64,000 bases of DNA from an uncultured Planctomycetia bacterium (GTDB lineage Bacteria > Omnitrophota > Gorgyraeia > VGKH01 > JBHPFN01): positions 11,364 to 75,363 of the forward strand of contig CAYOSQ010000007.1 of assembly GCA_964406665.1 (NCBI GenBank), given 5' to 3'. How positions within the stretch are numbered: the stretch's first letter is position 1; every line of letters starts with the position of its first letter. The notes below the pieces were generated by a model. That model saw only the letters and a list, made by a program, of their open reading frames with translations. It did not search any database and was not told the origin of the DNA. Of this stretch, positions 20,682 to 39,054 are shown one piece after another. The position numbers and the translations under genes are program-made.

Positions 20682-20685
20682 CTTA

Positions 20686-21624: not shown

Positions 21625-22448
21625 GGCAAAACAACAGAAATGTCTTTAGTATCCTTAAGCTTATGCTTAATTTCTGCCTGAATATCTTTATTATTGCTGC
21701 ACACCACAATAACGTCCCCATTTTTAAAATTTTCCACTCTTGGCAAGCGAAAGATTTTCTCGAACTTTCCTTTATAGCTATCGTCAAAATAGAAACAAAT
21801 TCCTCTATCTAAATTATTTCCTTGAACGAGCTCCTTAAATAAAGCCTGAAAATAATAAGAAACACCATAAAAAATGATTCGCTTGCCTTCAGAAGCCTTC
21901 TCACTTACTTTTTTTATAATTTCAGCTTTATTTATTTTAAACTTATCGAATAATGGTTTAACGTCAATTCTATCGCTGCCAGATTTCAGACTCTGTTTAT
22001 CTTTTCTAGCTAACACTCTTAAGAAATTTTTAGTATCACTATAGCAAATCTTAAAACCTTCTAAAGTATCTGATAAAGAACTAAGGTTAAAAAAGCTTAC
22101 GTGCTCAGGAGAAAAGTCTTCAACAAGAAATTCAAGAGAGTTATTCAAATATGGAATTTCGATAAAAAGTAATCCGTCATCATGCAATATTTCTTTTGCT
22201 TCAGCAATGATATTCTTCGAATTCTTCAAATGCTCTAAAGTATGATCTAAAATAATCAAATCGAATTTATAATCAAAAATGTCTTCTCTAAATTGTTTCT
22301 TTATTGTTGGTACTGATACATCGATATTCGCAGGATCAACACCCAAAATTTCCACAGAAGGATTCTTTTCCTTAATCATATACAAAATATCACCGCGGTT
22401 TGAGCCAATTTCTAAGATTTTAATATTTTTTTTTAGGCAACTTTCCAA
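21603..22448 (-). CDS. C-methyltransferase-like protein, SAM-binding plus C-terminal domain; the 3-prime fragment of a gene split by an A9 tract
   Basis: KILEIGSNRGDILYMIKEKNPSVEILGVDP...IILDHTLEHL is class I MT motif I/II, as in TylC3/NovU-type sugar C-methyltransferases. The ORF has no ATG; the track start is a TTG. Confidence 0.6.
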   Translation of the reverse strand: MESCLKKNIKILEIGSNRGDILYMIKEKNPSVEILGVDPANIDVSVPTIKKQFREDIFDYKFDLIILDHTLEHLKNSKNIIAEAKEILHDDGLLFIEIPYLNNSLEFLVEDFSPEHVSFFNLSSLSDTLEGFKICYSDTKNFLRVLARKDKQSLKSGSDRIDVKPLFDKFKINKAEIIKKVSEKASEGKRIIFYGVSYYFQALFKELVQGNNLDRGICFYFDDSYKGKFEKIFRLPRVENFKNGDVIVVCSNNKDIQAEIKHKLKDTKDISVVLPWSGILE

Positions 22449-22725
22449 TAATTAAATTAACTTTATCAATATTTTCTCTACTTCTTCTGGGAAACTCGAA
22501 TAAATCACTTTTTCTAAATTCTGCATAAACCTTTTTAATTATTTCATCATATTGCTTAGAATAAGCACTCCCCTGAAATACATAACCACAATCTTTACAC
22601 TGACTAATTAAAAACATCATGCTTCTTTCACTATTGGAAAAATACGCGCTTTCACTAGAATACACTTCCTCTAAATTAGAGCTTTCACACAGCGGACAGA
22701 TTGTACCTACTTTATTTTTTTTCAT
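22420..22725 (-). CDS. Zinc-ribbon N-terminal module (CPLC...CKDC) of the same C-methyltransferase-like gene; the 5-prime fragment
   Basis: C-x2-C ... C-x2-C Zn-ribbon, as found N-terminal to sugar C-methyltransferases. It ends in ...LPKKKY at an A9 run (22426-22434 on the + strand). Deleting one A fuses it in frame to 21603-22448. Confidence 0.5.
   Translation of the reverse strand: MKKNKVGTICPLCESSNLEEVYSSESAYFSNSERSMMFLISQCKDCGYVFQGSAYSKQYDEIIKKVYAEFRKSDLFEFPRRSRENIDKVNLIIGKLPKKKY
22426..22434. repeat. Homopolymeric T9/A9 tract at the junction of the two C-methyltransferase fragments
   Basis: Nine consecutive T (+ strand) seen directly. A -1 change restores a single ORF. Confidence 0.8.
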
Positions 22726-22728
22726 TGC

Positions 22729-23835
22729 TTAGATATATTCCATCAATTTCATACAATCCTTAACAATAATGTCCATATTGTCATAGTGGTATTTACCCAT
22801 CCTGCCAATGGAATAACAATCTTCTGGTAACAAAGCAAGATACTTATTGGCTTTTCTTATTTCCGATTTAAGTGGATAAGGATAAAGCTTGTTACCGAAA
22901 GATGGAAATTCAACCACTATTAATGTATCTGGAGATTTATATCCGGTCAAAAGCTTATATTCCATAACCCTTGTATAGGGCTCATCACCTGCATAATGCA
23001 AATAGTAATACGGCTCCGGGGTAACCTGCTTACAAGGTAAGATTATCTTTAAGAAGTCTCTACCGATATATTTAAGCTCACCGAATTTATAATCAAACAC
23101 CAGATCTATCGATGCTGAAGAAACAACAATATCAGCCGAAAACCACTTCCCCTTAACTAAAACTCTCTTTTTCTTTAAATTGAATTTCTCTACATAAGAA
23201 TTATAAATCACCTTACAACCTTCAACACATCTATCAAAATAAGAGTTATACCCATCAAGCTCAACTGGATAGGCAATAATCTTCTTCTTATCAAAGCATT
23301 GCTTAGAGCCCTGCTTTAATGCAACGCCTTTTGGAGAGAAAGAAAATTCATCTATGCTTCTGTTGTCTTTCATTTGCCACATCTTTTCAGAATATTTATG
23401 TATAAATTTATCATAAAGCGTTTTTCCCACAGAACGGATCCAGTAATCTTCAAAGTTTTTTGCAGATTTGATATCCTTTCTCTTTAGAAGCTCTCTATAA
23501 ACCCTATCTTTATCTGGCATACCATTAATCTCAGCTTTGTGAATTGGATATGTATAAAACTTGTTATCATCAGATACATAAGTTAAACAATGGTGTTTAA
23601 GTTTGCGTAACTTCAAAAATTTACTGAAATAATCCCAAACATACATCTCCTTCAGATCAATCAGAAGATGGCGTGGTCCGTAAGTGAAAGGATGACCATG
23701 ATAGAAGTACGTTCTACACCCTCCTCCTAGCTCATGACTTGCCTCCACAATTGTTACGTTAAAACCTTTTTGCTTTAACATATATGCGGCAGTGCAACCG
23801 GCAAATCCACCGCCAACTACCAAAGCTTTTTTCAT
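22729..23835 (-). CDS. glf: UDP-galactopyranose mutase
   Basis: MKKALVVGGGFAGCTAAYMLKQKGFNVTIVEASHELGGG (FAD site) and FDYKFGELKYIGRDF ... GRMGKYHYDNMDIIV are collinear with E. coli Glf. Confidence 0.85.
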   Translation of the reverse strand: MKKALVVGGGFAGCTAAYMLKQKGFNVTIVEASHELGGGCRTYFYHGHPFTYGPRHLLIDLKEMYVWDYFSKFLKLRKLKHHCLTYVSDDNKFYTYPIHKAEINGMPDKDRVYRELLKRKDIKSAKNFEDYWIRSVGKTLYDKFIHKYSEKMWQMKDNRSIDEFSFSPKGVALKQGSKQCFDKKKIIAYPVELDGYNSYFDRCVEGCKVIYNSYVEKFNLKKKRVLVKGKWFSADIVVSSASIDLVFDYKFGELKYIGRDFLKIILPCKQVTPEPYYYLHYAGDEPYTRVMEYKLLTGYKSPDTLIVVEFPSFGNKLYPYPLKSEIRKANKYLALLPEDCYSIGRMGKYHYDNMDIIVKDCMKLMEYI

Positions 23836-23866: not shown

Positions 23867-23898
23867 AGATTGTTATATAACATGTTATATAACAATCT
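23867..23898. promoter_or_regulatory. 32-bp perfect palindrome AGATTGTTATATAACATGTTATATAACAATCT in the only sizeable gap (61 nt) of the long operon
   Basis: Reverse complement verified by hand; it is identical on both strands. It lies between the stop of the FkbM MT (23897) and the glf start (23835), about 30 nt upstream of the glf AAGGAG SD. Confidence 0.5.
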
Positions 23899-24850
23899 AT
23901 CCGGAAAACTTTTCATAAAACTTATTTGATTTAGGGAATTCCTCATCAAATAAATTCTTATATGTTGAATAAACCTCATTCTTATTTGTAGATGGAAGAG
24001 ATAGCATATATTTAAATAAAAACGCGATCTTTTCTTTTAATTTCTTAAATAACGGATCGTTTTTAAAACCATCAAATTTAACTTTTTTCTGATCTTTTGC
24101 TCGCTGCATTAAATAAATCGCAATATCAGTTGCATTATTATTCATAAGAAACAACCCCAGCAAAACAACGTTCTCTGCAATTTTTGTGCTATTTTGCTTA
24201 AAAATAATCTCCGGATCTCTGATCCACACTGTCTCACACCCAATTAGTTGTCCATATTTATTCGGAAGGGTGAACTTGCTTAATGCGTGGCCTCGTCCAT
24301 CATAGTTTAGGTTTATTAATTCGAATTTATGCTCTTTTAAGAAATTATGAATGTCTCCAAATAAAGGTGCACCTATATATACCGGAAGAAAATATGTCTC
24401 CAGCCTAATACCCAATACAGTTGAGTCGAGAACGCTTTCTGCTCCTTTTAGAACCTCTAATTCTGTTCCCTCTGTATCGATTTTTAAAAAATGAATATCT
24501 TTATTATGAAATATCGAATCAATTGTTTTAACTGCTACTTTCTTCTCCGAAACAATATCGGCTTCATTTACCATAAACATTTTCTTTTTTCTTAAGGCAG
24601 AATCATTGCTCAAGATTGAGCTTAAGCCATTATGAGCTCTTTGCTTAAAGTTCACCTTACCATCAGAGCTATAGAGCCCCTGGGAATAAACTTCAATATT
24701 CCTATTATCCGCATATTTTTTCCTTAAACGCAAAGCTTCTTTAAAATCCATTTCAAATAGATGAAAATTAGCAATGTCACACAGCTCTTTCCATGTTGGA
24801 TGCAACCCGTAACGCGCTCCCACATCAATAACATTACATTTTAATTTCAT
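23897..24850 (-). CDS. FkbM-family methyltransferase
   Basis: NVIDVGARYGLHPTWKE ... FkbM-type motif. 317 aa. Confidence 0.7.
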   Translation of the reverse strand: MKLKCNVIDVGARYGLHPTWKELCDIANFHLFEMDFKEALRLRKKYADNRNIEVYSQGLYSSDGKVNFKQRAHNGLSSILSNDSALRKKKMFMVNEADIVSEKKVAVKTIDSIFHNKDIHFLKIDTEGTELEVLKGAESVLDSTVLGIRLETYFLPVYIGAPLFGDIHNFLKEHKFELINLNYDGRGHALSKFTLPNKYGQLIGCETVWIRDPEIIFKQNSTKIAENVVLLGLFLMNNNATDIAIYLMQRAKDQKKVKFDGFKNDPLFKKLKEKIAFLFKYMLSLPSTNKNEVYSTYKNLFDEEFPKSNKFYEKFSG

Positions 24851-25929
24851 TTTTTGACTTCCTTTCTTGATTTAACATAGCAAAATTTACAGGCGCCTGG
24901 AATATTCATATCTAGATGTTTTTTTCTAAAATCTTTATATTGCTTAGAATTCCAAATTGATTTCAAATCACCCAACTTACCTAAACAAAAAATGTCAGGA
25001 TTACCTATCATGCAACAAGGTACAACCTTTTTATCCGAAGAAATAAAAGATCTCTCAAACGGCCAGGGACAAATGTTGTCTTTCGAATATTTTGTGGTAA
25101 TATCCCAAAATGATAAGTTTATATTTTCCTGGGCTGCCTGGTCTAACAAACTATCGATGTCTGATTGAGTGACGGCATTTGAAATGCGCTTAATTTTATT
25201 TTTCTTATCCCACTCTTTACTTCCCCATGCGCTTACATCTAAACTTATGGTTAATCTTTTGAATCCCAGTTTTTTCGCAAAAGTTGGGAATTTATGAAGC
25301 TCTTTAAAATTATCCTTTTGCAAGAGAGCCCACATTCTCGTTTTGTCAGTCCCAAATTTGTCGCAATACTCATTTATAAGCTTGCAGTTTTCTACAACAC
25401 GCTTAAAACGTGCGCCTTTTCTAATATTCTCATAAACGGATTTCGTGGTCCCATCTATGGAAATCTGCACTTCTCCATTAATAAAATCAACTATCTTCTT
25501 ATAATAGTCATTCTTATGGATTACAGTTGCATTTGTAGTAGTCCTAACCCAGATATCTTTCGCACTTGCATACTTAACCATCTCAATAAAATCGTCCTGC
25601 AGAAATGGCTCTCCCAGACCCTGAAGCTTAAGCTCGAAAACTCCTACTTGGTCATCAATAATTCTTTTGAAATCATCAAAACTAAGATCTGAGGCCCTCT
25701 TTTTTGATTTAAATGTTGATACCTGGCACATATCACAGCTTAAATTACACCTACTAACGTTCTCTATATCTAACTTAACAGGTAAATAATTAGGCTCTAT
25801 TGAGGTTTTCGAATTCTTGAATTTTTTATAGTTCTCATAACGCCCAGGGAACCTTTCAAAGCCCCGCTCTAAAGTTTCATTATAGGCAGCAAGGTCCGCC
25901 GAAGGTTTAGGAAATTTAAGCTTTTTCAT
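24847..25929 (-). CDS. Radical SAM enzyme with a C-terminal SPASM/twitch-like Cys cluster
   Basis: CNLSCDMC (CxxxCxxC), GLGEPFL glycine-rich SAM motif, and C-terminal CPWP...CCMIGNPDIFCLGKLGD...ACKFC. Confidence 0.8.
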   Translation of the reverse strand: MKKLKFPKPSADLAAYNETLERGFERFPGRYENYKKFKNSKTSIEPNYLPVKLDIENVSRCNLSCDMCQVSTFKSKKRASDLSFDDFKRIIDDQVGVFELKLQGLGEPFLQDDFIEMVKYASAKDIWVRTTTNATVIHKNDYYKKIVDFINGEVQISIDGTTKSVYENIRKGARFKRVVENCKLINEYCDKFGTDKTRMWALLQKDNFKELHKFPTFAKKLGFKRLTISLDVSAWGSKEWDKKNKIKRISNAVTQSDIDSLLDQAAQENINLSFWDITTKYSKDNICPWPFERSFISSDKKVVPCCMIGNPDIFCLGKLGDLKSIWNSKQYKDFRKKHLDMNIPGACKFCYVKSRKEVKK

Positions 25930-26731
25930 ACTCTATCCTTTGCCTAACCCAAGTTCTCAAAACTTCCTCTGAATTATTGGGGAAAAAATTGTATTTTTTT
26001 TGTGCCTTTTTAATCGATAAGTTAAAAAAGTTTCTATGCCTTTCTTCAATTAGTAGCTTAGACGGAGAATTAAGCTTGTCTTTAACAATTTCAATTACTT
26101 CTTTCAATGTTTTGTCTTTATTCGATGCTAAATTAATTACGTCAAATTTTTCTTTCAAATACAAATTACTTACGAACCTAAATATATCCTCTATTGATAT
26201 AAAATTGTTAAAGATTCTATCTGAATTAAATATCTCAACGTGTTCTTCTTTTAATAACTTTAAGAAACTTCTAGAAAGCAAGTTTGTTTCATTTTTAAAA
26301 CTTAGTATTGCAGGAAAGCGCAAACATAAACAATCCAATTCACTACTCTCTAGCATATCCTCACCTAAAAGCTTAAGCGCGCCATACAAACAAGGAGTCA
26401 AGCCGATATCATCTTCACATACGTTTTCCTTATCAATATCTCCATAAACTGAAGCTGCAGAGAAAAAAATCAGTTCTTTTATTTTATTCTTTTCAGCAAA
26501 ATTAATTACTTTCTTAAGAAAAGCTATGTTAGATTCATGCATTTCTGAATCAGTGGCAGGTGGCGATTTAGCTGCTAAATGTAAAATTCTTTTAGCACTT
26601 ACATCTTGATTCAAATCTAACGGTGCGATATCTGCCCCAGAATCTTTAAACAGCTTATACAAAACGGAGCCTACGCCACCAAGATGCCCTGTCATTAATA
26701 TTTTTTCCATTTGCTTACTCCTTTTAAACAA
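25916..26731 (-). CDS. NAD(P)-dependent epimerase/reductase (short extended-SDR, RmlD-like)
   Basis: ILMTGHLGGVGSVL (Rossmann), SAASVYG, LYGALK (YxxxK). Confidence 0.6.
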   Translation of the reverse strand: MFKRSKQMEKILMTGHLGGVGSVLYKLFKDSGADIAPLDLNQDVSAKRILHLAAKSPPATDSEMHESNIAFLKKVINFAEKNKIKELIFFSAASVYGDIDKENVCEDDIGLTPCLYGALKLLGEDMLESSELDCLCLRFPAILSFKNETNLLSRSFLKLLKEEHVEIFNSDRIFNNFISIEDIFRFVSNLYLKEKFDVINLASNKDKTLKEVIEIVKDKLNSPSKLLIEERHRNFFNLSIKKAQKKYNFFPNNSEEVLRTWVRQRIEYEKA

Positions 26732-27845
26732 AATCTAAATGCTCTCTGTCAGCATTTAGATATTCTAAAATCATCCTGTTTTTTGCATCTGCCACACAAT
26801 GATGATTACAAACCAAAGTTGGATTAATCTTAAAAAACTTGTCTTTACTACTAAACCAAAAATCCTTAAACCTTTTATCCTTTATTGTTCCTATTAAACC
26901 ATCTGCAAGATTATATGCCTTATCCTGACAAGGATAAATATTTAAATCTGCCCCTATAACCGGTAAGATTTGCAAATACGGGCACCATTTATACTTCTTT
27001 TCAAATCCATCTTCAAGCTCATGATATGAATCATAAATCTCAAAAGAATCATCTGCGAATTCTTCACTTGCTCGATTAATTTGACATTTTATAAGATCCA
27101 AAAGAGACTTGTGATACTTTTTATTTTTTTCCGCAGAATTACTGATAACACACGGGGAAACTTTAACGCTGTCAATTTTAATTTTTTTTAGCTTTTCAAT
27201 AAAATCAAATATGTGATTAGCATTATATTTATCAACTATAATCACTACACCTAAATAGCAGTTTCCTTTAATTCTTTTAAAATCTTCCATGTTTTTCATT
27301 ATCTTGGGAAACTCATCTTTCTTCACTCCTCTGTATTCTGCATAGCTTTCTTCATCCCAACCATCCATTGAAACCCTAAGCCAAGTAGCATTCTTGGCAA
27401 ATATTTCGGCAATTTCCCCTTCAAGCAAAGAACCATTGGTAAGCGCAGAAAATTTAATTGATGTCTTAGATAGCTTTTTTATAGTTTCTAGAATATGTGG
27501 ATAGCAAAACGGCTCTCCCCCTCCGCTAAAAGTAACTGCTTTAACTCCCATTTCAACTAAATCATCAATAATTTCAAACATTTTATCTCTAGGGATAAAA
27601 TCTTTCTTAGACATATCCTGTCCGAGTTGAAGATCATCTGTCTTATAAGCACAATAACTACAGTTATGCTGACACGTATTAGTAGGCTTTATCCTGATGT
27701 GTAGTGGTGATAATATTTTTGAATTTTCTTTTACAAGAGAATCAAGCTTGTCTTTGAAATGAAATATCTTAAGCTTCGTATAGAGAATTTTCTTATTTTT
27801 CATTTTATTCAAAATATATAAACTCAAAATCTCCGCTGTAGTCAA
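26724..27845 (-). CDS. Radical SAM enzyme (SPASM-like C-terminus)
   Basis: CQHNCSYC (CxxxCxxC), FSGGGEPF, and C-terminal CPY...YPCQD...CNHHC. Confidence 0.8.
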   Translation of the reverse strand: MTTAEILSLYILNKMKNKKILYTKLKIFHFKDKLDSLVKENSKILSPLHIRIKPTNTCQHNCSYCAYKTDDLQLGQDMSKKDFIPRDKMFEIIDDLVEMGVKAVTFSGGGEPFCYPHILETIKKLSKTSIKFSALTNGSLLEGEIAEIFAKNATWLRVSMDGWDEESYAEYRGVKKDEFPKIMKNMEDFKRIKGNCYLGVVIIVDKYNANHIFDFIEKLKKIKIDSVKVSPCVISNSAEKNKKYHKSLLDLIKCQINRASEEFADDSFEIYDSYHELEDGFEKKYKWCPYLQILPVIGADLNIYPCQDKAYNLADGLIGTIKDKRFKDFWFSSKDKFFKINPTLVCNHHCVADAKNRMILEYLNADREHLDFV

Positions 27846-28467
27846 ATTCCTTCAACAGCCACTCCCACTCTTGTTTGCCGAAGAAAGACTCACAAGTAAG
27901 CGCCCAACACTGAAGGTTAAAAAGCTCGGTTTCGTTTCTGAAGCTTTCCACAACTACGTATTTATTCTTTCCGACTCTCTCCATTTCACCAATTGCCTTT
28001 TTTAAATCGAAGATCGCCAAATTATGCAATGTCGTAATCGAAATCACCAAATCGAACTCATTATCGTCAAACGCATATTTATCCTGCGCCCTATGCTGAA
28101 AAAGATTCGACCTCACCTCTTCTTTAGCATTCTCTAGCGCATACCCTGAAATATCTATTCCTTTTACAGTACAATTTGACAACAATTGAGTAAATTCGTA
28201 TAAAAGATGTGCCTTACCACAACCTACGTCAAGAATCTTAGCGTTATCTTTCAATCCATAGACATCAATTAATTTTTCGGCAACGACCTTCCATCTGCCG
28301 TCATATCTATACCCTCCATATCCAAATCGCCTATTTCCATCCCAGTAATCCTGGCCATATTCTTTTGCCACTTTCATACAATGTACCTTTTTATCCTGCA
28401 TTCTGTCGATATAATCTCTTTTTGTTTTTTTATGAAGTGGCGTAACAATATTCATTAACTTACCCAT
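27805..28467 (-). CDS. Class I SAM-dependent methyltransferase
   Basis: ILDVGCGKAHLLYEF motif I. The start is probably the internal Met MGKLMNIV at 28467 (the track ORF extends to 28545 and overlaps the transketolase gene). Confidence 0.7.
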   Translation of the reverse strand: MGKLMNIVTPLHKKTKRDYIDRMQDKKVHCMKVAKEYGQDYWDGNRRFGYGGYRYDGRWKVVAEKLIDVYGLKDNAKILDVGCGKAHLLYEFTQLLSNCTVKGIDISGYALENAKEEVRSNLFQHRAQDKYAFDDNEFDLVISITTLHNLAIFDLKKAIGEMERVGKNKYVVVESFRNETELFNLQCWALTCESFFGKQEWEWLLKEFDYSGDFEFIYFE

Positions 28468-28474
28468 GACTACC

Positions 28475-29389
28475 TCACTTTGTGATTTTCTCGATATAGA
28501 TAGAAATCTCTTCAGCTGAAATTCCGAAATAATCGCGCATTCCATTTAGATCTTTGATTTCATGAATGAATTTATTTCTGATTCCCAGATTATGAAGCTT
28601 CCATTTAGGATTTCTCTTTAAGTATTCTTGAGCAATTATTGAACCTAAGCCACAAGTTAAATAATGTTCTTCAACAACAACCAAATTTTTTACATCTCTG
28701 CAAAGAAAAAAAAGTTTATCAAAATCAAGTGGCATGATCATTGGATTAGATATAAGTTTTGGCTTAATGCCTTTTTTAATCAATATGTCTCTAGCCTTTA
28801 TCACTTCTATACCGATTGAGCCATGAAAAACAATAGCTACGTCCTCTCCATCATTTATCAACTGTGGCTGAGATATATCAAACTTAGAATCTTTATGGAT
28901 ATTTGGTTCGCCTTTTTTTGCCAACCTTACATATAGTGGAGTTTCGCAGTTAAGTGAAAACTCTGCAGCTAATTTTGATTCTATAAGGTCTGCTGGAGAA
29001 ATCACAGCAAGGTTCGGCAATGTCTGAGCAATGCCCAAATCTTCTATAGAATAATGCGTCATCCCCTGCAATGGATAAGTTATGCCGCTTCCAATTCCCG
29101 TTAAGGTGACCGCAAGTCTCTGATAACAGATATCATTTCTGATTTGCTCATAGCATCTATACAATAAGAATGGAATTATGTTATAGGCATACACTTTAAA
29201 TCCAGCCAGCGAAAGACCAGCAGAGAAACTAATCATGTTTTGCTCGGCAATACCTAAATTAAGAAAATTATCAGCGCAACCTTCTTTCAATTCATCAAAC
29301 ACGCCTAAGCCCGCATCACCGCTGATTATAAACATATCTTTGCGTTTTTTTGCGTTATTTAAAACAGTATTGACGAATGCATTTCTCAT
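28475..29389 (-). CDS. Transketolase, C-terminal (pyrimidine-binding) subunit
   Basis: ...GDAGLGVFDELKEGCADNFLNLGIAEQNMISFSAGLSLAGFKVYAY... is collinear with split-transketolase B subunits. Confidence 0.85.
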   Translation of the reverse strand: MRNAFVNTVLNNAKKRKDMFIISGDAGLGVFDELKEGCADNFLNLGIAEQNMISFSAGLSLAGFKVYAYNIIPFLLYRCYEQIRNDICYQRLAVTLTGIGSGITYPLQGMTHYSIEDLGIAQTLPNLAVISPADLIESKLAAEFSLNCETPLYVRLAKKGEPNIHKDSKFDISQPQLINDGEDVAIVFHGSIGIEVIKARDILIKKGIKPKLISNPMIMPLDFDKLFFLCRDVKNLVVVEEHYLTCGLGSIIAQEYLKRNPKWKLHNLGIRNKFIHEIKDLNGMRDYFGISAEEISIYIEKITK

Positions 29390-30171
29390 GATAACTCTTT
29401 TAAGGCCTGCTTTTTATGCTCATCTCTTACAATATAATAATGCCAGATGAGTTCATTCTCCATAAAAGAAACACCCTTACCCTTAACTGTACAGGCTAAA
29501 ATTATTTTTGGCTTTCCCTGTGAATCCTTTTTTAAAGCACTTTCTATAGCAGCGTGATCATGGCCGTCAACCTCTTCAACATACCAGCCAAACGCTTCCC
29601 ACTTAGCCTTTAAAGGCTCAAAATAGCATATTTCCTTTGCCCTGCCATAACCTTGTAAGTTGTTATAATCCATGATTGCTGTAAAATTATCTATTTTTAA
29701 CTGTGCAGCAAACAATGCCCCCTCCCAAATAGAACCTTCCTGAGATTCACCGTCACCGATAACTGCAAATACCTTCCTGTCTAAATTATCTTTCTTAAAC
29801 CCATACGCCATACCTAAGCCAATATTAAAACCATGACCCAAAGAGCCTGTTGACACTTCAATACCTTTGGCTGTAAATCTATCTAAATGGGCAGGCAGCG
29901 TTCCATCATTCTTCAGATAGCCATCCAAAAACTTTCTTTCCATGAGGCCGCGCTCTACCAAAGTCGTATACAATGCCATATCTGCATGACCTTTACTCAA
30001 GACAAAAATATCCCTTTTATCCCAATCATCAAATTTTAATATCCTATAATATAGAACTGTCAGAATATCGACGCAAGAAAGACAGGAACCAACATGTGGA
30101 CACTTAGATCTATGCGCAAGTTCAATGATCTCTTTTCTTATATTATTCGCAATTATTTTTAATTCTTCCAT
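29386..30171 (-). CDS. Transketolase, N-terminal (thiamine-diphosphate-binding) subunit
   Basis: ...SKGHADMALYTTL..., GSLGHGFNIGLGMAY, and GDGESQEGSIWEGALFA ThDP motifs. Confidence 0.85.
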   Translation of the reverse strand: MEELKIIANNIRKEIIELAHRSKCPHVGSCLSCVDILTVLYYRILKFDDWDKRDIFVLSKGHADMALYTTLVERGLMERKFLDGYLKNDGTLPAHLDRFTAKGIEVSTGSLGHGFNIGLGMAYGFKKDNLDRKVFAVIGDGESQEGSIWEGALFAAQLKIDNFTAIMDYNNLQGYGRAKEICYFEPLKAKWEAFGWYVEEVDGHDHAAIESALKKDSQGKPKIILACTVKGKGVSFMENELIWHYYIVRDEHKKQALKELS

Positions 30172-30173
30172 AG

Positions 30174-31235
30174 TTAAATAAAGTTTACATGCTCAACTTC
30201 AGGATGTTTAAGTTCCCATAAAAAACTATTAATCTGATGATGCCTGCAGTTAGGCTGACACATTTTTTTATCATAAGTTTTATTGATATAGTCAATAGTC
30301 TTCCGCCTTTTACTCCACACCTGTGAAAATGATTTTTCAAAAATATTTCCCAGAGATGTTTTTTTGTCATGCTGATAAGAAAAACATGTATAAACTTCTC
30401 CATCTTCACGGATATAAATGATAAACGGAAGACCATAGCACTCTTTATAAAACCTATCTTTGGAAATATTACTTCTACTTCTGACGATAAAAGAAAAACT
30501 CTCATCGGATAAAGATTCTGCTGACCTACTTAAAGATTTAATAAAATCATCAGTTAACCAATCATTATTTAAACCAGATTGATTTTTGCTATGTCCATAA
30601 AAATACTTTACAACAAAATAATCAACACCTGCTTTCTTCATTGTCTTAGCACAATCAACTACAAAATCTTTATTATCATCTAAAATAATATATTGTATGC
30701 CTATAGTAATGTCTGCATTTAGTTCATTTTTTTTAACTCTTAGTTTCTGAATATTATTTAAAACTAAAGAATAGTCTTCCTTTTTTGCTTTATGAACCTT
30801 TGCATAATTTTCGGCGTTTCCTGAATTAAATGAAAACCTTATCCAGGTAAGAGATTTTGCCAAAATACCAAGATCATCTTCTTTAAGCAAAGCTCCGTTA
30901 GTGCTTAAGGCTACGTCGATGCCTTTCTCTTTAGCATATGCAATTGATGGAACAGTCTCTTGGTTTATCAGGGGCTCACCAGTACCGGCAAAAACCATTG
31001 ATTTAATACCTGAATCTTTTAACTCATCAATCAAAGTTTTCATTCTGCCTTGTTTAAACATCCCCTTATGGCCTAAATATTCATAATGGCAAAAAATGCA
31101 GCCGTGATTACAATTTGCAGATGGTGAAATTTCTGCATAAATAGGCTTTATGTTTTTTCCGGACAAAAAATCAACAAGTGCTTGCGGGTGATACAAAAGC
31201 TTATGTCCGTCTAGCTCGAATTTAGCCACTAACAA
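30174..31235 (-). CDS. Radical SAM enzyme (SPASM-like C-terminus)
   Basis: CNHGCIFC (CxxxCxxC), FAGTGEPL, and C-terminal C...C...CQPNC. Confidence 0.8.
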   Translation of the reverse strand: MLVAKFELDGHKLLYHPQALVDFLSGKNIKPIYAEISPSANCNHGCIFCHYEYLGHKGMFKQGRMKTLIDELKDSGIKSMVFAGTGEPLINQETVPSIAYAKEKGIDVALSTNGALLKEDDLGILAKSLTWIRFSFNSGNAENYAKVHKAKKEDYSLVLNNIQKLRVKKNELNADITIGIQYIILDDNKDFVVDCAKTMKKAGVDYFVVKYFYGHSKNQSGLNNDWLTDDFIKSLSRSAESLSDESFSFIVRSRSNISKDRFYKECYGLPFIIYIREDGEVYTCFSYQHDKKTSLGNIFEKSFSQVWSKRRKTIDYINKTYDKKMCQPNCRHHQINSFLWELKHPEVEHVNFI

Positions 31236-32127
31236 CCTCTTTCTCAGACTCAGATAGATCGCGGATATTTTTAATTTCTACTGAAGTATGTCCGAATATC
31301 TGCAAACGGTTAGTCTTGACCTTTATATCACAAGGGTTACAGTGACCAAACAGATAACAAGGCCGATAAATGTCCTCTATTTGAAAATTCTCATCAAGAA
31401 TATGTCCGATGGGTTGCCTTTTAGAATAAAGGTCTGAATGGCATCGGTAAATGTTCCCTGCAGGACCAACGATGAGTTCCGTTGTTTTGCATTCGCAGAA
31501 TTTATTTATCTCTTCGCTTACTGCTAAAGGATATTTATATGTACCGTGCCATTTTTTACCATCATACCCAAGATATTCTTTTGTCCTAAAATCTATACCG
31601 AGCTTTTTACAGCGCCCTTGTATATCTCTTATATGCTCAGCATTTTCTGGTGTCATCACAGAATATAATCCTACATAAAATCCTGCATCTGCCAACCGCA
31701 GAATTTTTTTGATAATTTCTTCGATATCATTTTGTCCTGGATGATAGCTTGCTCTGATTGCGGCATATTTTGCTTCACGGGTAAACTTCGAAGGCGGGAT
31801 ATTCTTGATAAACTCATCAACCTCAAACATCAAATTAGTAAGTAGATCCAGCTTTATGTTATCTCTAATACCATTAACTATCTCATAAAATCCTGGATGA
31901 ATCGTTGGTTCTCCGCCTTGAAAAGTCACCGGTAAATCTTCCCTGTTAATCTGTATTCTATTTATCGCATCAATCCACTCTTTAGCAATTAATGATGCGC
32001 GAGTTATTTCATTTCTCGGTGATTTTAAATCTTTATAATTAATACAATAATCACAAGATAAATTACAGTTAAGCGTTAAAAACATTGCAACATAATTATA
32101 GTGTTTTGGGATAGGAATAGGTTTCAT
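31222..32127 (-). CDS. Radical SAM enzyme
   Basis: CNLSCDYC (CxxxCxxC), FQGGEPT. Confidence 0.8.
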   Translation of the reverse strand: MKPIPIPKHYNYVAMFLTLNCNLSCDYCINYKDLKSPRNEITRASLIAKEWIDAINRIQINREDLPVTFQGGEPTIHPGFYEIVNGIRDNIKLDLLTNLMFEVDEFIKNIPPSKFTREAKYAAIRASYHPGQNDIEEIIKKILRLADAGFYVGLYSVMTPENAEHIRDIQGRCKKLGIDFRTKEYLGYDGKKWHGTYKYPLAVSEEINKFCECKTTELIVGPAGNIYRCHSDLYSKRQPIGHILDENFQIEDIYRPCYLFGHCNPCDIKVKTNRLQIFGHTSVEIKNIRDLSESEKEVVSG

Positions 32128-32129
32128 TT

Positions 32130-33773
32130 TTATAACTGTAAATACTTATTAGCAAATTTTCTAACAGATTCTCTGTGAGATACTGCAATTATAGTTAACT
32201 CAGGATAATTCTTACGGATTTCCACAAAAATTTTCTCTTCAGTGATTTCGTCTATATTTGCTGTTGCTTCATCTAGAATTAACACGCTTGGATTGTATAG
32301 CAAGGCCCGAGCAAGAGAAATGCGTTGCTTCTGCCCCGCTGAAATCCCTTCTCCTGATTCTCCAAGCTTATAGGATAATCCACCATCCAATTCATGTATA
32401 AATGTACAGCAGGAAATATTTAGCACCTTTTCAAGATCATTGCTTGCCAAATCTTTATTTCTTACTCCGTAAAAAAGATTTTCTCTAACAGTGCTGTCGA
32501 TGAGAAATGGATCTGTCCCGGAATATCCAACATTGCTTCTAAAAACTTCCCGGCTCCACAAAGACAAGTCAACATTATTCCATTTAATATCTCCGCTAAG
32601 TTTCTCCACAATTCCTAAGATCGTCATAAGAAATGTTGTCTTTCCTTTTCCGGATTCTCCCTTAACCAGCAAAAAATCACCTTTATTAATTTCGAGATTA
32701 ACATCTTTAAGCAGTTCTGCGTTTCGTCCAATGCTTAGATCTTTAACGCTAAGACTTTCAGGAACGCCTCTATATGATTTAAGGTCTTCTCTAGCTTCGT
32801 TTTCAGTCTTATCTGAAAACATTTCTGAATACTCTAGAAAATTTGTTAAAAATGGATAACAAAACTGAACATGGCCAAAAGACCTAGCGAGTTGAGAAAT
32901 AGCTTGAGGCAATCTAATCAATAAATATATAAATGTAATAAGAGTACCACTTTCGACGTAATTTTCTCTGTGGTTACCCCAAATAGTAAATATCACTATT
33001 AACACCCCGGCAAAAAGTGGCCAAGTATTATTAACTGAAATCCCAACTGCATACTTTATAAACTGCTTGTAAATAGTATTGTTAACAGTATTTAGATTAC
33101 TTAGTTCTCGATTATTTGTTCCAACTATTCTTAAAAAATAAATATTGCGTAAATCCCGTAATATATTTAAAGAAAACATTTTAAGGTTTTTATGGAAACT
33201 TCCTGCATAAGACTGGTAAGCACTTTTTAGAATAATTGTCGGGAAGATCATGACCGCTACTGCAACTAAGGCAACAAGTGTAAGGTTTGCAGAAATAACT
33301 GCCATCCCCACTAGAATAGTAAGCATTAGGAAAAAAGCGCTGATCATTTGGCAAAAAGATGAAACAAAATTGCCTACCTTGGGAGTGAGATTAGTTGTTA
33401 TATGACTAACTTCTGCAACAGAAAGATAACTATTTTCTGCATCAGTCCCTAAAATTGCAAGTCCTAGCATTCTCCTTACTCTGGAGCTAAAAGTTTCATA
33501 TGAAAAATCCGGCAGGAAACTGGCTAAAAAATAAAAACAAAAACGCACTACTGCAACAGAGGCAAGAAAAACTGTTGGCATTGTAGCAAAAGGCAGCAAA
33601 ATACTTGGGATGTTCTTTGATTGAATCAAATCAAAGCTAACTAAAAAGTTTTGCAGAGCAAAACCAAAAATCATCTCGATAAGGCCTAAGAAAAACCCTA
33701 AGAATATCGTGGTAATAAAAAGAAAAAATACCTTTTTGCCAAATAATCTTTTAACTTTTTCAAAAAAAGTCAT
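32130..33773 (-). CDS. ABC exporter, fused permease plus ATPase half-transporter
   Basis: N-terminal ~6 TM helices. Walker A GESGKGKTT, signature ISAGQKQRISLARAL, Walker B ILDEATANID. Confidence 0.85.
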   Translation of the reverse strand: MTFFEKVKRLFGKKVFFLFITTIFLGFFLGLIEMIFGFALQNFLVSFDLIQSKNIPSILLPFATMPTVFLASVAVVRFCFYFLASFLPDFSYETFSSRVRRMLGLAILGTDAENSYLSVAEVSHITTNLTPKVGNFVSSFCQMISAFFLMLTILVGMAVISANLTLVALVAVAVMIFPTIILKSAYQSYAGSFHKNLKMFSLNILRDLRNIYFLRIVGTNNRELSNLNTVNNTIYKQFIKYAVGISVNNTWPLFAGVLIVIFTIWGNHRENYVESGTLITFIYLLIRLPQAISQLARSFGHVQFCYPFLTNFLEYSEMFSDKTENEAREDLKSYRGVPESLSVKDLSIGRNAELLKDVNLEINKGDFLLVKGESGKGKTTFLMTILGIVEKLSGDIKWNNVDLSLWSREVFRSNVGYSGTDPFLIDSTVRENLFYGVRNKDLASNDLEKVLNISCCTFIHELDGGLSYKLGESGEGISAGQKQRISLARALLYNPSVLILDEATANIDEITEEKIFVEIRKNYPELTIIAVSHRESVRKFANKYLQL

Positions 33774-33786
33774 CTTTTACAACCTA

Positions 33787-34299
33787 TTAGTACCCAATTA
33801 GTTTTCGGAGGGAATTAATGTTTTTTGTTGTCTTAGCCACTTTATTTATAAGATTATCCAAATCTTTAATGTTTTCTTGATATGCCTTTAATTCATTCTT
33901 TTGTTCTACACTAAGAGCGACCATATCAAGAGTAGCTAGCTTTGCCTTAACCTCATCCAACGAACCCCTACCCTCATCAAGAATACCAGAAAAGATTTCT
34001 ACAGAATGATTAATCACAAAGTTCATAATATCCCTGTTAGCTTCGTAATGGTCTTTGCGGTTTTCCTGCACCCAAACCCTTTTAGCTGCTCCCCATTTCT
34101 CTAAACGCCTAATATTTATGCTAACATTACCCTTGCTCATCCTACAAACCCTACCTAGTTGATCTAAGTCTAGAGCACTCTTGCTAAAATAAAGAGCAGC
34201 GTAAAGCTGCCCAATAGATTTATTCAAACCTATCTTGTTGGTCAGATAGCCGAATCTAAAAATTAGTTCTTCTTGTAAACTTGCAATCTCTTTATTCAT
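33787..34299 (-). CDS. GbsR/MarR-type HTH transcriptional regulator, first gene of the long minus-strand array
   Basis: ...LGRVCRMSKGNVSINIRRLEKWGAAKRVWVQENRKDHYEA... matches the GbsR-family wing/HTH pattern (GdRrdyYeA). Confidence 0.55.
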   Translation of the reverse strand: MNKEIASLQEELIFRFGYLTNKIGLNKSIGQLYAALYFSKSALDLDQLGRVCRMSKGNVSINIRRLEKWGAAKRVWVQENRKDHYEANRDIMNFVINHSVEIFSGILDEGRGSLDEVKAKLATLDMVALSVEQKNELKAYQENIKDLDNLINKVAKTTKNINSLRKLIGY

Positions 34300-34436
34300 A
34301 GATATTAATAGTGTTCAAAATTATTAAAACACCAGATATGTCTTCTTCCAGTCATTTTTTATGCTTTTTCTTATCATGTTTTCCTCCCGATTATCCATTA
34401 AGAAGGATGGCAAAGAGTATCCTTAGGTTCGTTTTA

Positions 34437-35009
34437 TCAAATAGTATCAGTTTTCTTAATTTGACTTAATGCGCATGGATTTGTACACCCCGGGTTAAAG
34501 CAATGCAGATCAATGTCAATGTTTTCACTCAATATTTTGATGTAATTAAACTTAGGGGGCACGTTATCTTTTTGCTCAAATGGACCCAGTTTTGTCTCGG
34601 TGTAAAGAACATAATCCGTTAAGGGAATCCAAAGGTGATATTTCCCGGCAGGATTCATATAAACAAAATTTTCTTGAGGGGTAAGTAAAGTTTTTTTGAG
34701 GAGATCCCCATTATCATCAAACATGAGGGCAAGCATTTCTCCTTCAATCATTTGCAGAAATTCATCTTTCTCAATATGTTTGTGTGGTTTTCTACATTTT
34801 CTATCTTTATATTCTAAGATTACCATCGCGTGTAATAATTTATCACAACTCTGATGCATGCAAAATCTTATATTCGCATTATTACCATTGCGAGAAATGA
34901 GTTTCATTTTCTCAATATTTTTCCGATGAAACACAGCAGGCTCACTATCTACAAAATAAGTGATTGATTTCGCCTTTATTTCTTTGAAATTATCAATTTT
35001 TTCATTCAT
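34437..35009 (-). CDS. Cupin-fold protein (possibly WbuC-like) with a Cys-rich tail
   Basis: Small beta-rich ORF with HxH-type residues (IRFCMHQS...HAMVI...PHKH) and C-terminal HCFNPGCTNPC. The family call is weak. Confidence 0.3.
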   Translation of the reverse strand: MNEKIDNFKEIKAKSITYFVDSEPAVFHRKNIEKMKLISRNGNNANIRFCMHQSCDKLLHAMVILEYKDRKCRKPHKHIEKDEFLQMIEGEMLALMFDDNGDLLKKTLLTPQENFVYMNPAGKYHLWIPLTDYVLYTETKLGPFEQKDNVPPKFNYIKILSENIDIDLHCFNPGCTNPCALSQIKKTDTI

Positions 35010-35106: not shown

Positions 35107-35179
35107 ATTTTTGGATTATACAACACTCACCACATGCTGTCAATGACAATTTAAGGGTATGATATTATGATTTAAGCGC

Positions 35180-38922: not shown

Positions 38923-39054
38923 AATTTCAAAAGTACCTTTCAATGAAATAGTTACAGGTATATTGTATAGCTCTGTAAGAAAAATATCAAGCTAAGCTAC
39001 GATTATCTATTTTTTTGTTGCCAGCTTAACATTTATAGTATATGATTTGATAAT

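Follow-up and report, generated by a model that had tools for sequence, protein, structure and literature searches.

The 64,000-nucleotide window that we analysed carries a surface-glycan operon whose promoter-proximal genes encode four radical SAM enzymes (rSAM-A to rSAM-D), a transketolase-like ThDP enzyme and methyltransferases. These three classes of gene recur together with sugar genes in more than 10 phyla. This recurrence favours radical-mediated tailoring of a nucleotide sugar or glycan with the participation of a ThDP C2-transferase, as had been proposed in the initial annotation. We consider it very likely that the cassette serves sugar or glycan tailoring, and our explanation of the locus as a whole, a conserved but uncharacterised sugar-tailoring cassette in a surface-glycan operon, is in our judgment reasonably probable. 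The further statement that no described pathway matches this combination was borne out by our searches, in which no paper describing it was found.

Organization of the operon

The gene coordinates that had been given were correct, with every listed ORF in its place and on the minus strand (Table 1). However, the module does not end at 34299 as was thought; its true start is one gene further upstream, at a gene for a WbuC-family cupin that is also assigned to DUF6016 in the JGI precomputed Pfam data. The module genes are closely packed or overlapping downstream of one consensus promoter, and GC content is uniform over the region. The promoter candidate lies in the 170-bp gap that precedes the cupin gene and is the sole 12/12 sigma-70 match between 22000 and 37600, in a scan in which the total number of promoter-like sites did not exceed the shuffled expectation. 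With the gathering score as the threshold for Pfam calls, the assignments of split transketolase, class I methyltransferase, SDR, ABC protein, FkbM protein and glf were all upheld, and a TIGR04372 glycosyltransferase passed its curated cut-off. The GbsR/MarR-like regulator was found at its reported position, but its family match is sub-threshold only (cut-offs of 218 for CudC and 27 for MarR_2).

Table 1. Features of the module and its downstream genes, listed in the direction of transcription.
Feature	Coordinates	Strand	Evidence
Candidate module promoter, TTGACA-17-TATAAT	35115..35143	-	12/12 sigma-70 consensus; consensus match only
WbuC-family cupin (DUF6016), first module gene	34437..35009	-	NCBIfam TIGR04366 76.7 bits, cut-off 42
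GbsR/CudC/MarR-like winged-helix regulator (accessory)	33787..34299	-	CudC 63.8 bits, MarR_2 19.5 bits
Fused TMD-NBD ABC exporter (accessory)	32130..33773	-	Pfam ABC_membrane + ABC_tran
rSAM-A, 301-aa radical SAM, twitch/SPASM-like C-terminal Cys cluster	31222..32127	-	PF04055 45.7 bits
rSAM-B, radical SAM/SPASM-twitch, remotely DesII-like	30174..31235	-	PF04055 68.2, SPASM 34.8 bits
TK-N, transketolase-like ThDP enzyme, N-terminal (PP-domain) subunit	29386..30171	-	Transketolase_N 111.7 bits
TK-C, transketolase-like ThDP enzyme, C-terminal (Pyr + C domain) subunit	28475..29389	-	Transket_pyr + Transketolase_C
MT220, class I SAM methyltransferase, 220 aa	27805..28467 (ORF to 28545)	-	Methyltransf_31 76.7 bits
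rSAM-C, paralogue of rSAM-B, four-Cys twitch-like C-terminus	26724..27827 (ORF to 27845)	-	PF04055 79.7 bits
Short extended SDR, RmlD/epimerase-like	25916..26710 (ORF to 26731)	-	Epimerase 41.2, RmlD_sub_bind 28.5 bits
rSAM-D, radical SAM/SPASM, hallmark partner of Glf-like mutase	24847..25929	-	PF04055 60.1, SPASM 37.7 bits
FkbM-family methyltransferase	23897..24850	-	PF05050 69.5 bits; TIGR01444 68.6 bits, cut-off 37.7
Glf-like FAD-dependent NDP-sugar pyranose/furanose mutase	22729..23835	-	GLF 90.2 bits
TylC3-like methyltransferase (Zn-ribbon N-terminus + MT domain), frameshifted	21603..22725	-	Alignment to L009 MT380
Second FkbM-family methyltransferase	20686..21624	-	PF05050 43.7 bits
GT9 (heptosyltransferase-family) glycosyltransferase	19749..20729	-	Glyco_transf_9 50.4 bits

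The cupin is probably a keto-sugar epimerase or isomerase and the SDR probably a keto-sugar reductase. The ABC exporter resembles HepA, MsbA and PglK, in each case below cut-off, and is possibly a flippase of this type for a lipid-linked glycan. The Glf-like mutase aligns over its full length with UDP-galactopyranose mutases and keeps the YTRV.E.K and Y.Y.NMD motifs, while scoring under the UGM equivalog cut-off (115 vs 304). Likewise, the GT9 protein is below the heptosyltransferase equivalog cut-offs; it has counterparts of 53-80% identity in related loci (L009, L010, L012, L013, L028 and L042) and is probably the transferase for the tailored sugar. What had been called a C-methyltransferase-like gene does encode a methyltransferase, but it is not intact. 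It is split by a +1 frameshift that falls within an A9 tract, such that residues 3-103 of its L009 homologue MT380 align in frame -1 and residues 102-377 in frame -2. The tract is identical in two independent assemblies, and L009, L011, L028 and L031 carry a fused version of the gene.

The radical SAM enzymes

All four rSAMs contain CX3CX2C as described, at residues 21 (rSAM-A), 42, 58 and 61. Conserved C-terminal Cys clusters had been credited to three of them, whereas our alignments identified one in each: C213/229/257/263/266 in rSAM-A, the four invariant residues C266/284/326/330 in rSAM-B, C288/306/346/350 in rSAM-C and C287/305/306/347/350 in rSAM-D. Radical_SAM was above its gathering score in all four proteins and SPASM in rSAM-B and rSAM-D; none of the four matched a curated family at any cut-off. 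rSAM-B and rSAM-C are full-length paralogues (24.5% identity over 355 aa, E 1e-32). For rSAM-D, 2231 homologues were retrieved at E<=1e-10, and their alignment contains 60 invariant columns, 8 of which are Cys.

The ThDP enzyme and MT220

The ThDP enzyme genes lie directly downstream of the rSAM-B gene. Their products share the two-subunit architecture of the Carboxydothermus hydrogenoformans split transketolase (221 bits for TK-N against 6YAK and 133 bits for TK-C against 6YAJ), and neither subunit reached the NCBIfam transketolase cut-offs. The GDG...N ThDP motif and the catalytic His positions of the N subunit are conserved. In contrast, cluster-linked TK-C proteins have Gly, Gly and Gln/Leu where human H416, S345 and D424 stand; this holds for the window protein and, of 25 linked homologues, for all those whose sequence spans the region. 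Judging from these alignments, the acceptor and phosphate pocket is altered, with loss of the canonical His, Ser and Asp, whereas two of the four canonical phosphate ligands are kept (Arg, and Lys/Arg). The enzyme thus appears to combine retained catalytic and ThDP residues with the loss of canonical sugar-phosphate and acceptor residues.

The true start of MT220 is probably 28467 rather than 28545, since its homologues are 220 aa in length. The protein is highly conserved: at least 8000 homologues were found, and among the best 120, identity is 67-77% and almost every sequence has a length of exactly 220 aa.

Recurrence of the cassette across genomes

Loci were fetched with rSAM or methyltransferase baits, and all co-occurrence counts are conditional on the bait. 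rSAM-D, rSAM-A and MT220 each retrieved loci, from more than 10 phyla. Within 10 kb on either side of rSAM-D (84 loci), we found GLF in 52, MT220 in 51, the transketolase pair in 43, the SDR in 29, the second FkbM methyltransferase in 19, rSAM-C in 18 and the cupin in 16. The cupin recurs in the order cupin-SDR-rSAM-D-GLF, and the SDR typically lies between the cupin and rSAM-D. HldE-like proteins (21 loci), GmhA-like SIS proteins (15) and transaldolase (9) are further recurrent neighbours, as are TylF and TylC3 methyltransferases, an APH kinase, a DegT aminotransferase, and RmlD-like and extended SDRs. Because the same genes co-occur across phyla, their grouping is not due to chance.

The core of the cassette is [rSAM-B]-TKN-TKC-MT220-rSAM-C, in which rSAM-C follows MT220 in L009, L010, L012, L028, L044, L077, L161 and L162. 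The complete set of four rSAMs together with the transketolase, MT220, SDR, GLF and GT9 is present in Omnitrophota (L009 and L010), Brocadia (L012 and L013) and Sulfurimonas (L028). Four MT220-baited contexts were sampled, all set among sugar genes; the ThDP pair was upstream in 4/4 and an rSAM was directly downstream in 3/4 and one gene further in the other. Among 40 metagenome loci retrieved with rSAM-A, a B-type rSAM was present in 25, a B12-rSAM in 26 and a ThDP pair in 16; the pair was no more than 2-3 genes from a B-type rSAM in 14 of those 16, and GT9 adjoined the B-type rSAM in 14/40. Whole or as sub-cassettes, these genes were always amid sugar-activation and glycosyltransferase genes, in many phyla. 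The regulator was found in 2 of the 84 rSAM-D loci, both from Omnitrophota relatives, and an HTH gene occupies its position in one MT220-baited locus. Close homologues of the ABC exporter were found in 3/84 loci; ABC exporters are also present in L011, L046, L080 and one MT220-baited locus.

Comparison with known systems

DesII, the TDP-4-amino-4,6-dideoxy-D-glucose deaminase/dehydrogenase of the desosamine pathway, is a radical SAM enzyme that acts on a nucleotide sugar and yields a 3-keto-deoxy sugar. Both the rSAM-B/C family profile (3.6e-19; BlsE, BtrN and viperins are also listed) and rSAM-B alone have it as their best PDB match, but the likeness is remote (49 bits for rSAM-B against a family cut-off of 450). 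DesII is not known to have the four-Cys C-terminal auxiliary-cluster motif of rSAM-B and rSAM-C, and its context is a macrolide rather than a surface glycan. BtrN, BlsE, AprD4, HygY and NeoN, from antibiotic pathways, are small twitch/SPASM rSAMs that possess auxiliary Fe-S clusters and catalyse the oxidation, dehydration, decarboxylation or epimerisation of sugars. The similarity of this group to our proteins is at the superfamily level only, and the present loci differ in having four such rSAMs in one operon, coupled with a ThDP enzyme, in surface-glycan loci of many phyla.

YerE (yersiniose) and the E1alpha/beta pair AviB1/AviB2 (avilamycin) are ThDP enzymes of deoxysugar pathways that attach a two-carbon branch to keto-sugar nucleotides, and the avilamycin cluster also encodes a radical SAM sugar epimerase, AviX12. 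These systems resemble the cassette in that a ThDP enzyme is found inside a sugar cluster; as with AviB1/AviB2, E1alpha/beta pairs occupy the transketolase slot in related loci. The enzyme encoded in the window is instead of the split transketolase type, closest to 6YAK/6YAJ, which predicts that the unit transferred is a glycolaldehyde and not acetyl or hydroxyethyl. Similarity to the ADP-/GDP-heptose pathway comes from GmhA-like, HldE-like and HldD-like genes in related loci and from GT9 in the window. However, the related-locus counterparts are all below the equivalog cut-offs, the HldE-like domain order is reversed, and activation genes are absent from the window operon.

Alternative explanations

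The ThDP enzyme might instead build the sugar skeleton. It would generate sedoheptulose-7-phosphate or an unusual higher ketose phosphate, in some loci with transaldolase, GmhA-like and HldE-like enzymes would isomerise, phosphorylate and nucleotidylate the product, and the rSAMs and methyltransferases would tailor it only afterwards; the lincomycin octose route (LmbR/N/P/K/O) is of this kind. Contiguity of the GmhA-like and HldE-like genes with TKN-TKC in L007, L011, L077 and L162, the transaldolase of nine loci (333.9 vs an equivalog cut-off of 282) and the two basic phosphate ligands of TK-C argue for such a route, and the sub-cut-off scores of the GmhA-like and HldE-like proteins are compatible with a non-standard ketose phosphate. 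Yet the operons of the window and of its closest relatives, L009 and L010, have the transketolase and neither a GmhA-like nor an HldE-like gene, and no linked TK-C protein retains the phosphate-binding His and Ser or the acceptor-selecting Asp. Moreover, the slot can be taken by E1alpha/beta pairs, which use 2-oxoacids and not ketose phosphates, and the transketolase is closely flanked by rSAM-B and MT220/rSAM-C. We regard this route as unlikely, although it is the strongest competitor. That an independent small-molecule pathway with its own regulator and exporter merely resides in the glycan operon, as the initial annotation also entertained, is improbable. Many combinations of rSAM, methyltransferase and ThDP enzymes occur in natural-product clusters, and the regulator and ABC exporter do head the block. 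However, these two are its least conserved members, the partners that are conserved (Glf-like mutase, GT9, WbuC cupin, RmlD-like SDR and HldE-like protein) are specific to glycans, genes for a carrier protein, NRPS, PKS or other scaffold are absent, and the genes, uniform in composition, overlap like those of one operon.

Tailoring of a hopanoid-, ladderane- or ether-type lipid is suggested by an upstream B12-rSAM that best matches HpnJ (187 bits) and a ladderane-associated B12 rSAM model, by the tetraether synthase GDGT-MAS as the best PDB sequence match of rSAM-D (4e-8), and by the presence of the module in anammox Brocadia. We consider it very improbable, as all of these scores are far below cut-off, many phyla that carry the module are without ladderanes, and the operon has no lipid-synthesis genes, with sugar genes dominating every locus. 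There is hardly any likelihood that the enzymes are SPASM/twitch maturases of a RiPP, protein or cofactor like PqqE, anSME and the sactisynthases, despite their SPASM domains and weak matches to many maturase models. The initial annotation had named grouping with peptide maturases and a nearby precursor gene as evidence against a role in sugar tailoring; every maturase score was 5-20 times under its cut-off, and no conserved small ORF was found. The sole gap ORF (29 aa, 34324-34413) is impossible in L009 because the corresponding gap is 70 bp. SuiB, SkfB and CteB are among the top Foldseek neighbours of the AF2 model of rSAM-D (pLDDT 92), but its structural neighbours are of a generic kind (TM 0.5-0.63 for SuiB, viperin and SkfB), and the model begins with two helices and not an RRE. 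Only 20-60 aa precede CX3CX2C in the rSAMs, too few to accommodate a RiPP recognition element. Protease, PqqD and leader-processing genes are also absent, and the synteny is with sugar genes.

Proposed pathway

For the sugar-tailoring cassette, we propose an activated sugar as the substrate, probably one of the heptose type because GmhA-like and HldE-like genes are present in related loci and the transferase belongs to GT9; alternatively, it could be the nonulosonic acid or a GDP-mannose derivative that other genes of the operon produce. The twitch enzymes rSAM-B and rSAM-C would abstract ring hydrogens to create keto or deoxy centres, the transketolase-like enzyme would transfer a two-carbon ketol unit onto a carbonyl to give a branched or chain-extended sugar, and MT220 would methylate this product. 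We put forward the order of keto formation by rSAM followed by ThDP-dependent C2 transfer only tentatively, as a possible sequence of events. The two phosphate ligands kept in TK-C and the transaldolase of nine loci suggest that the ThDP enzyme may act on sugar phosphates before activation. Epimerisation and the reduction of the keto group that is left would then fall to the cupin and SDR, another radical step together with ring contraction would be the task of rSAM-D and the Glf-like mutase, and the FkbM and TylC3-type enzymes would add methyl groups. GT9 would install the tailored sugar, and the lipid-linked glycan may be flipped across the membrane by the ABC protein. Because this block recurs beside sugar-activating genes across phyla and has never been characterised, the cassette probably makes an unusual, hitherto undescribed surface sugar.

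Gene content and boundaries of the cassette

The glycan genes of the window form a long minus-strand array (~445 to 36595), and the cassette of radical SAM (rSAM), transketolase-like (TKN and TKC subunits), methyltransferase, SDR and Glf-like genes lies at its head. G+C content is ~33% throughout and composition is unbroken at the cassette. The same sequence is also present on marine metagenome contigs (JGI 3300009008 and 3300009374, ENA SUTE22-1), and the nearest named relatives of several of the proteins are from Candidatus Omnitrophota (67-77% identity), so the source bacterium probably belongs to Omnitrophota. Gene assignments with Pfam and NCBIfam models confirmed all of the genes listed in the initial annotation at their coordinates; these genes overlap or are a few bases apart, as within one operon. 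The reported unit had the right genes but the wrong 5′ end, as a WbuC-family cupin gene precedes it. Residues 28-148 of the cupin match TIGR04366 with 76.7 bits (cut-off 42), which places it in that family. The region's only perfect sigma-70 consensus (35143→35115) is ahead of the cupin gene; taken together, the promoter and terminator scans did not exceed shuffled expectation. Four upstream genes (GT87, GT2, a gene for a 695-aa protein and PMT_2) were considered as members of the module and left out. Their resemblance to the conserved module went no further than what GT2 enzymes and B12-rSAMs share in general (20-37% identity).

Coordinates of the cassette genes and of other genes in the window
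Feature	Position	Strand	Remarks
T2SSF platform protein, PilM-PilN fusion	58446-63684		type IV pilus/type II secretion
STT3/PglB-type oligosaccharyltransferase	54415-56883		Pfam STT3, 73 bits
GT-C enzyme	44135-45967
B12-binding rSAM	37513-38943		best model HpnJ
GT2	36709-37476		left out of module
GT-C enzyme	35180-36595
WbuC-family cupin	34437-35009		TIGR04366
GbsR/CudC/MarR-like regulator	33787-34299	minus	scores below cut-offs
Fused ABC exporter	32130-33773	minus
rSAM-A	31222-32127	minus	PF04055
rSAM-B (SPASM)	30174-31235	minus	PF04055
TKN	29386-30171	minus	Transketolase_N
TKC	28475-29389	minus	Transket_pyr + Transketolase_C
MT220	27805-28467	minus	class I methyltransferase, 220 aa
rSAM-C	26724-27845	minus	PF04055
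Short extended SDR	25916-26731	minus
rSAM-D (SPASM)	24847-25929	minus	PF04055
FkbM methyltransferase	23897-24850	minus
Glf-like	22729-23835	minus	GLF
TylC3-like methyltransferase	21603-22725	minus	frameshifted
Second FkbM methyltransferase	20686-21624	minus
GT9	19749-20729	minus
Nonulosonic-acid set	14484-18429
NeuB	17395-18429
336-aa protein	16382-17392		between NeuB and epimerase
Hydrolysing UDP-GlcNAc 2-epimerase	15185-16369
CMP-transferase	14484-15185
370-aa protein	12598-13710		RGP/STELLO-like
827-aa flippase-GT2 fusion	3161-5644		distal end of operon

The gene annotated as C-methyltransferase-like is broken by a +1 frameshift. The frameshift occurs in an A9 tract at ~22425-22433 (minus strand CCTAAAAAAAAATATT) and separates the Zn-ribbon segment (101 aa) of the TylC3-like reading frame from its methyltransferase segment (281 aa); an A8 tract would restore the frame. 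The A9 tract is identical in two independent assemblies (L001 and L003; L numbers denote loci retrieved with homologue baits), and the homologues in L009, L011, L028 and L031 are fused. Through this tract, a glycan-modifying gene could undergo phase variation or slippage during transcription.

Family tests of the four radical SAM proteins

All four proteins belong to the radical SAM superfamily. PF04055 scores were 45.7 (rSAM-A), 68.2 (rSAM-B), 79.7 (rSAM-C) and 60.1 bits (rSAM-D) against a cut-off of 29.5, and the previously noted CX3CX2C motif was found in each, at residues 21, 42, 58 and 61. Members of the SPASM/twitch subgroup carry a Cys-rich C-terminal domain with one (twitch) or two (SPASM, 7-Cys motif) auxiliary 4Fe-4S clusters. 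C-terminal Cys clusters had been reported for three of the proteins; they are indeed present, but in all four, and the residues are conserved among homologues (five in A, four in B, four in C and five in D). The Pfam SPASM model scored above cut-off in rSAM-B (34.8) and rSAM-D (37.7) and not in A or C. Judged from these Cys counts, a single, twitch-like auxiliary cluster would fit better than a full SPASM domain. rSAM-B and rSAM-C are paralogous over their full length (E 1e-32), and four C-terminal Cys residues are invariant in each.

When a profile of the B/C family was compared with the PDB, DesII was the best match (E 3.6e-19, over the rSAM core only), followed by SkfB, MoaA, BlsE, SuiB, anSME, BtrN and viperins. 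DesII converts a nucleotide-sugar to a 3-keto-deoxy sugar, the type of electrophile attacked by the ThDP carbanion in yersiniose and avilamycin branching. rSAM-B fell outside the DesII family TIGR04426 (49.1 bits, cut-off 450), and B, C and A scored 61.3, 67.9 and 31.9 bits with the viperin-like model NF038283 (cut-off 180). Sequence searches of the PDB with single rSAMs returned remote matches only, and Foldseek with the AF2 model of rSAM-D found generic rSAM neighbours, from which no function was assigned. Overall, family assignment was secured only for the radical SAM superfamily, the WbuC cupin family and the general transketolase fold.

The transketolase-like enzyme has an altered substrate pocket

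The nearest structure to the split transketolase-like enzyme was the genuine split transketolase of Carboxydothermus (221 and 133 bits); with the NCBIfam transketolase model the scores were 226 and 119 bits, below the cut-off of 488. Alignment to 6YAK and human transketolase indicated that TKN keeps the ThDP/Mg motif and catalytic His residues (GHA, H, GDGE...N, WH). In the pocket of the transketolase Pyr domain (human numbering, with equivalents in E. coli), H416 and S345 bind phosphate and D424 selects the acceptor. S345 and H416 are each replaced by Gly, and D424 by Gln or Leu, in the window TKC and, without exception, in those of the 25 cluster-linked homologues that cover the region. Of the basic ligands, one Arg is retained and the other (R474 position) is Lys or Arg. 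As a whole, TKC does not carry the transketolase sugar-phosphate/acceptor pocket defined by S345, H416, D424 and R474.

The ThDP slot after rSAM-B is occupied by different enzyme types. In half of the ThDP loci retrieved with rSAM-A it contains an E1alpha/E1beta pair (E1_dh 233 bits; L094, L143, L093, L095), and elsewhere a split transketolase, TKN with a truncated, 173-aa TKC (L099, L108, L125, L130) or a minimal pair of 205 and 174 aa (L163, a MAG labelled Nanoarchaeota). No more than 2-3 genes separate the ThDP pair from a B-type rSAM in 14 of 16 pairs. This interchangeability of transketolase and E1 enzymes argues for C2-unit transfer to an unusual acceptor rather than for pentose-phosphate housekeeping.

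Other sugar enzymes of the cassette

The WbuC cupin appears to pair with the RmlD-like SDR in epimerizing and reducing keto-sugars. The Glf-like protein scored 90.2 bits with Pfam GLF, above the cut-off, and could be aligned over its full length with UDP-galactopyranose mutase structures; the nucleotide-sugar motifs YTRV.E.K and Y.Y.NMD are kept. Because its score with the UGM equivalog TIGR00031 (115.3) is far under the cut-off of 303.75, this protein is probably a mutase-type enzyme for a sugar other than that of UGM. GT9 was recognized by Pfam (50.4 bits, cut-off 22), and its scores with the heptosyltransferase I/II/III (WaaC/WaaF/WaaQ) equivalogs were 39-48 against cut-offs of 135-185. A PDB search with MT220 found generic methyltransferases only.

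The cassette is conserved in distant phyla

An alignment of rSAM-D homologues was used as bait against public genomes. The 80 loci returned were from Omnitrophota, Planctomycetota (Brocadia), Nitrospirota, Campylobacterota, Cyanobacteria, Alpha-, Gamma- and 'Delta'-proteobacteria, Acidobacteriota, Verrucomicrobiota, Latescibacterota and others. Loci of Omnitrophota (L009, L010), Brocadia (L012, L013) and Sulfurimonas (L028) have the complete set of four rSAMs, transketolase, MT220, SDR, Glf-like protein and GT9. The additional families that recur in the rSAM-D loci are all sugar-related.

Families within ±10 kb of rSAM-D (n=84 loci), followed by additional families in rSAM-D loci
Family	Loci	Remarks
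Glf-like mutase	52/84
MT220	51/84
Transketolase pair	43/84
SDR	29/84
FkbM	19/84
rSAM-C	18/84
WbuC cupin	16/84
GT9	7/84
rSAM-A	5/84
ABC exporter	3/84
Regulator	2/84
HldE-like nucleotidyltransferase/kinase fusion	21	not in window
Additional extended SDRs	17-20
GmhA-like SIS isomerase	15	not in window
TylF methyltransferase	14	not in window
TylC3-type methyltransferase	11
APH-type kinase	11	not in window
GFO/IDH/MocA oxidoreductases	10	not in window
Bona fide transaldolase	9	not in window

The HldE-like proteins (L006, L007, L032, L053, L077, L162, L163) have an N-terminal nucleotidyltransferase and a C-terminal PfkB kinase domain, the opposite order to that of E. coli HldE. They and the GmhA-like proteins score well under the heptose-pathway equivalog cut-offs, which hints at a non-standard sugar phosphate substrate.

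Because these loci had been retrieved with an rSAM bait, reverse baits were also used. In MT220 contexts the ThDP pair was upstream in all four sampled and an rSAM was downstream, with one intervening gene in a single context and none in the other three; HldE-like, GmhA-like, SDR, DegT, NeuB or GT9 genes surround them. One of these contexts is nearly a gene-by-gene counterpart of the window (HTH, rSAM-A, rSAM-B, GT9, TKN, TKC and a methyltransferase, then MT220, rSAM-C, SDR, methyltransferases, ABC exporter and B12-rSAM). The rSAM-A bait retrieved 40 metagenome loci of at least 6 kb, which contained a B-type rSAM (25), B12-rSAM (26), DPM1-like GT2 (26), GT9 (14) and ThDP pairs (16). These results define a conserved core, [rSAM-B]-TKN-TKC-MT220-rSAM-C, a second sub-cassette, cupin-SDR-rSAM-D-Glf-like, and a third, GT9-rSAM-B...rSAM-A.

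Carriers occur in more than 10 phyla, among cultured as well as uncultured bacteria, with more than 2000 homologues of rSAM-D and at least 8000 of MT220. The best 120 MT220 homologues are 67-77% identical, come from distant phyla and nearly all have exactly 220 aa; this protein is far more conserved than its transketolase or rSAM neighbours at the same loci (31-46% identity). The module had no match in PLSDB plasmids or complete E. coli genomes. From these data we conclude that the cassette is a real conserved feature.

Proposed function and alternative explanations

The block is very probably a sugar-tailoring cassette that feeds the surface glycan. This was also the reading preferred in the initial annotation, and the recurrence of the genes across phyla among sugar-related genes favours it. 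The order of reactions is proposed tentatively and may well differ from the real one: rSAM-B and rSAM-C would generate keto or deoxy centres, the transketolase-like enzyme would add a C2 unit, MT220 would methylate, the cupin and SDR would finish the ring, rSAM-D and the mutase would then act, and GT9 would transfer the sugar. It is a real possibility, somewhat short of even, that the combination of [twitch rSAM]-split TK-like-MT220-[twitch rSAM] with rSAM-D/Glf-like mutase and GT9 constitutes a novel and widespread route to a surface-glycan sugar by radical SAM and ThDP C2 chemistry, the product being branched or higher-carbon, methylated and possibly furanosidic.

In the main rival, the transketolase-like enzyme would assemble an unusual ketose phosphate, and activation by GmhA-like and HldE-like enzymes would be the next step. 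The way in which the genes are arranged in L007, L011, L077 and L162 and the co-occurrence of transaldolase speak for it, but activation genes are absent from the operon of the window and its closest relatives, the pocket residues of TKC are altered and E1 enzymes can take the place of transketolase; we consider it unlikely. Peptide maturation by the rSAMs, which the initial annotation had named as an outcome that would overturn its reading, is very unlikely. The best scores with RiPP and protein-maturing families (PqqE, SCIFF, sacti-/ranthipeptide synthases, anSME) reached 45-76 bits where the cut-offs are 265-855, the locus lacks a conserved small ORF as a precursor candidate, and the rSAM N-termini have only 20-60 aa, modelled in rSAM-D (AF2, pLDDT 92) as two helices and not an RRE.

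A separate small-molecule pathway residing in the operon had also been suggested. An independent metabolite made for export is an unlikely product, given that conservation is lowest for the regulator and exporter and that scaffold genes are absent. A lipid-tailoring role would rest only on weak hits. Bradyrhizose is a C10 bicyclic O-antigen sugar whose biosynthetic genes are unknown (PMC4743980, PMC9912281); a link to it (C7 + C2 + C1 = C10) was dropped as unsupported, and no named photosynthetic Bradyrhizobium was among the top 120 matches to the Bradyrhizobium rSAM-D.

Other glycan genes in the window

The B12-binding rSAM upstream of the cassette scored 187 bits with HpnJ, the hopanoid cyclitol-ether ring-contraction enzyme (cut-off 578). 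Of the 40 metagenome loci with rSAM-A, 26 also have B12-rSAMs, frequently more than one, so this fifth rSAM may be functionally part of the same system. After the cassette, the operon continues with a nonulosonic-acid set, an arrangement also seen in L009 and L010. The 370-aa protein matches weakly to plant RGP (UDP-arabinopyranose mutase family) and STELLO glycosyltransferases, a family that is unusual in a bacterial glycan locus. At the operon's distal end, a Wzx-type flippase (Polysacc_synt) is fused to a GT2 glycosyltransferase. The STT3/PglB-type enzyme, which adjoins an S41 peptidase, and several GT-C enzymes (GT87, PMT_2) suggest protein glycosylation, possibly the glycan's destination. 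Glycosylation might be directed at the type IV pilus/type II secretion proteins, whose genes lie downstream of those for glycosylation.

Relation to known systems

Full-text literature searches found no published description of this gene combination, in agreement with the initial failure to match it to a pathway. Papers on the anammox S-layer glycan report heptose and nonulosonic acids, with no tie to the cassette genes.

The closest known systems are carbohydrate rSAMs of the DesII, BtrN and BlsE type, the ThDP C2-branching enzymes YerE and AviB1/B2, the genuine split transketolase, and the GmhA/HldE/GT9 heptose pathway. The cassette is best classed as radical SAM sugar tailoring combined with ThDP C2 transfer, in surface-glycan loci of many phyla. 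To our knowledge, radical SAM sugar tailoring and ThDP C2 branching are known almost solely from antibiotic deoxysugar pathways. The cassette would be a case of the two chemistries acting jointly in ordinary loci for cell-surface glycans, and its carriers belong to such distant lineages as Omnitrophota, anammox Planctomycetota, Campylobacterota, cyanobacteria and rhizosphere Alphaproteobacteria. It contains several large enzyme families without a characterized member (rSAM-A to rSAM-D, the altered-pocket transketolase-like subfamily and MT220). Cultured carriers, among them Azospirillum, Bradyrhizobium, Thalassobaculum, Paramagnetospirillum and Pseudolabrys, offer tractable entry points. The cassette points to at least one unknown monosaccharide that may be common in environmental bacteria.
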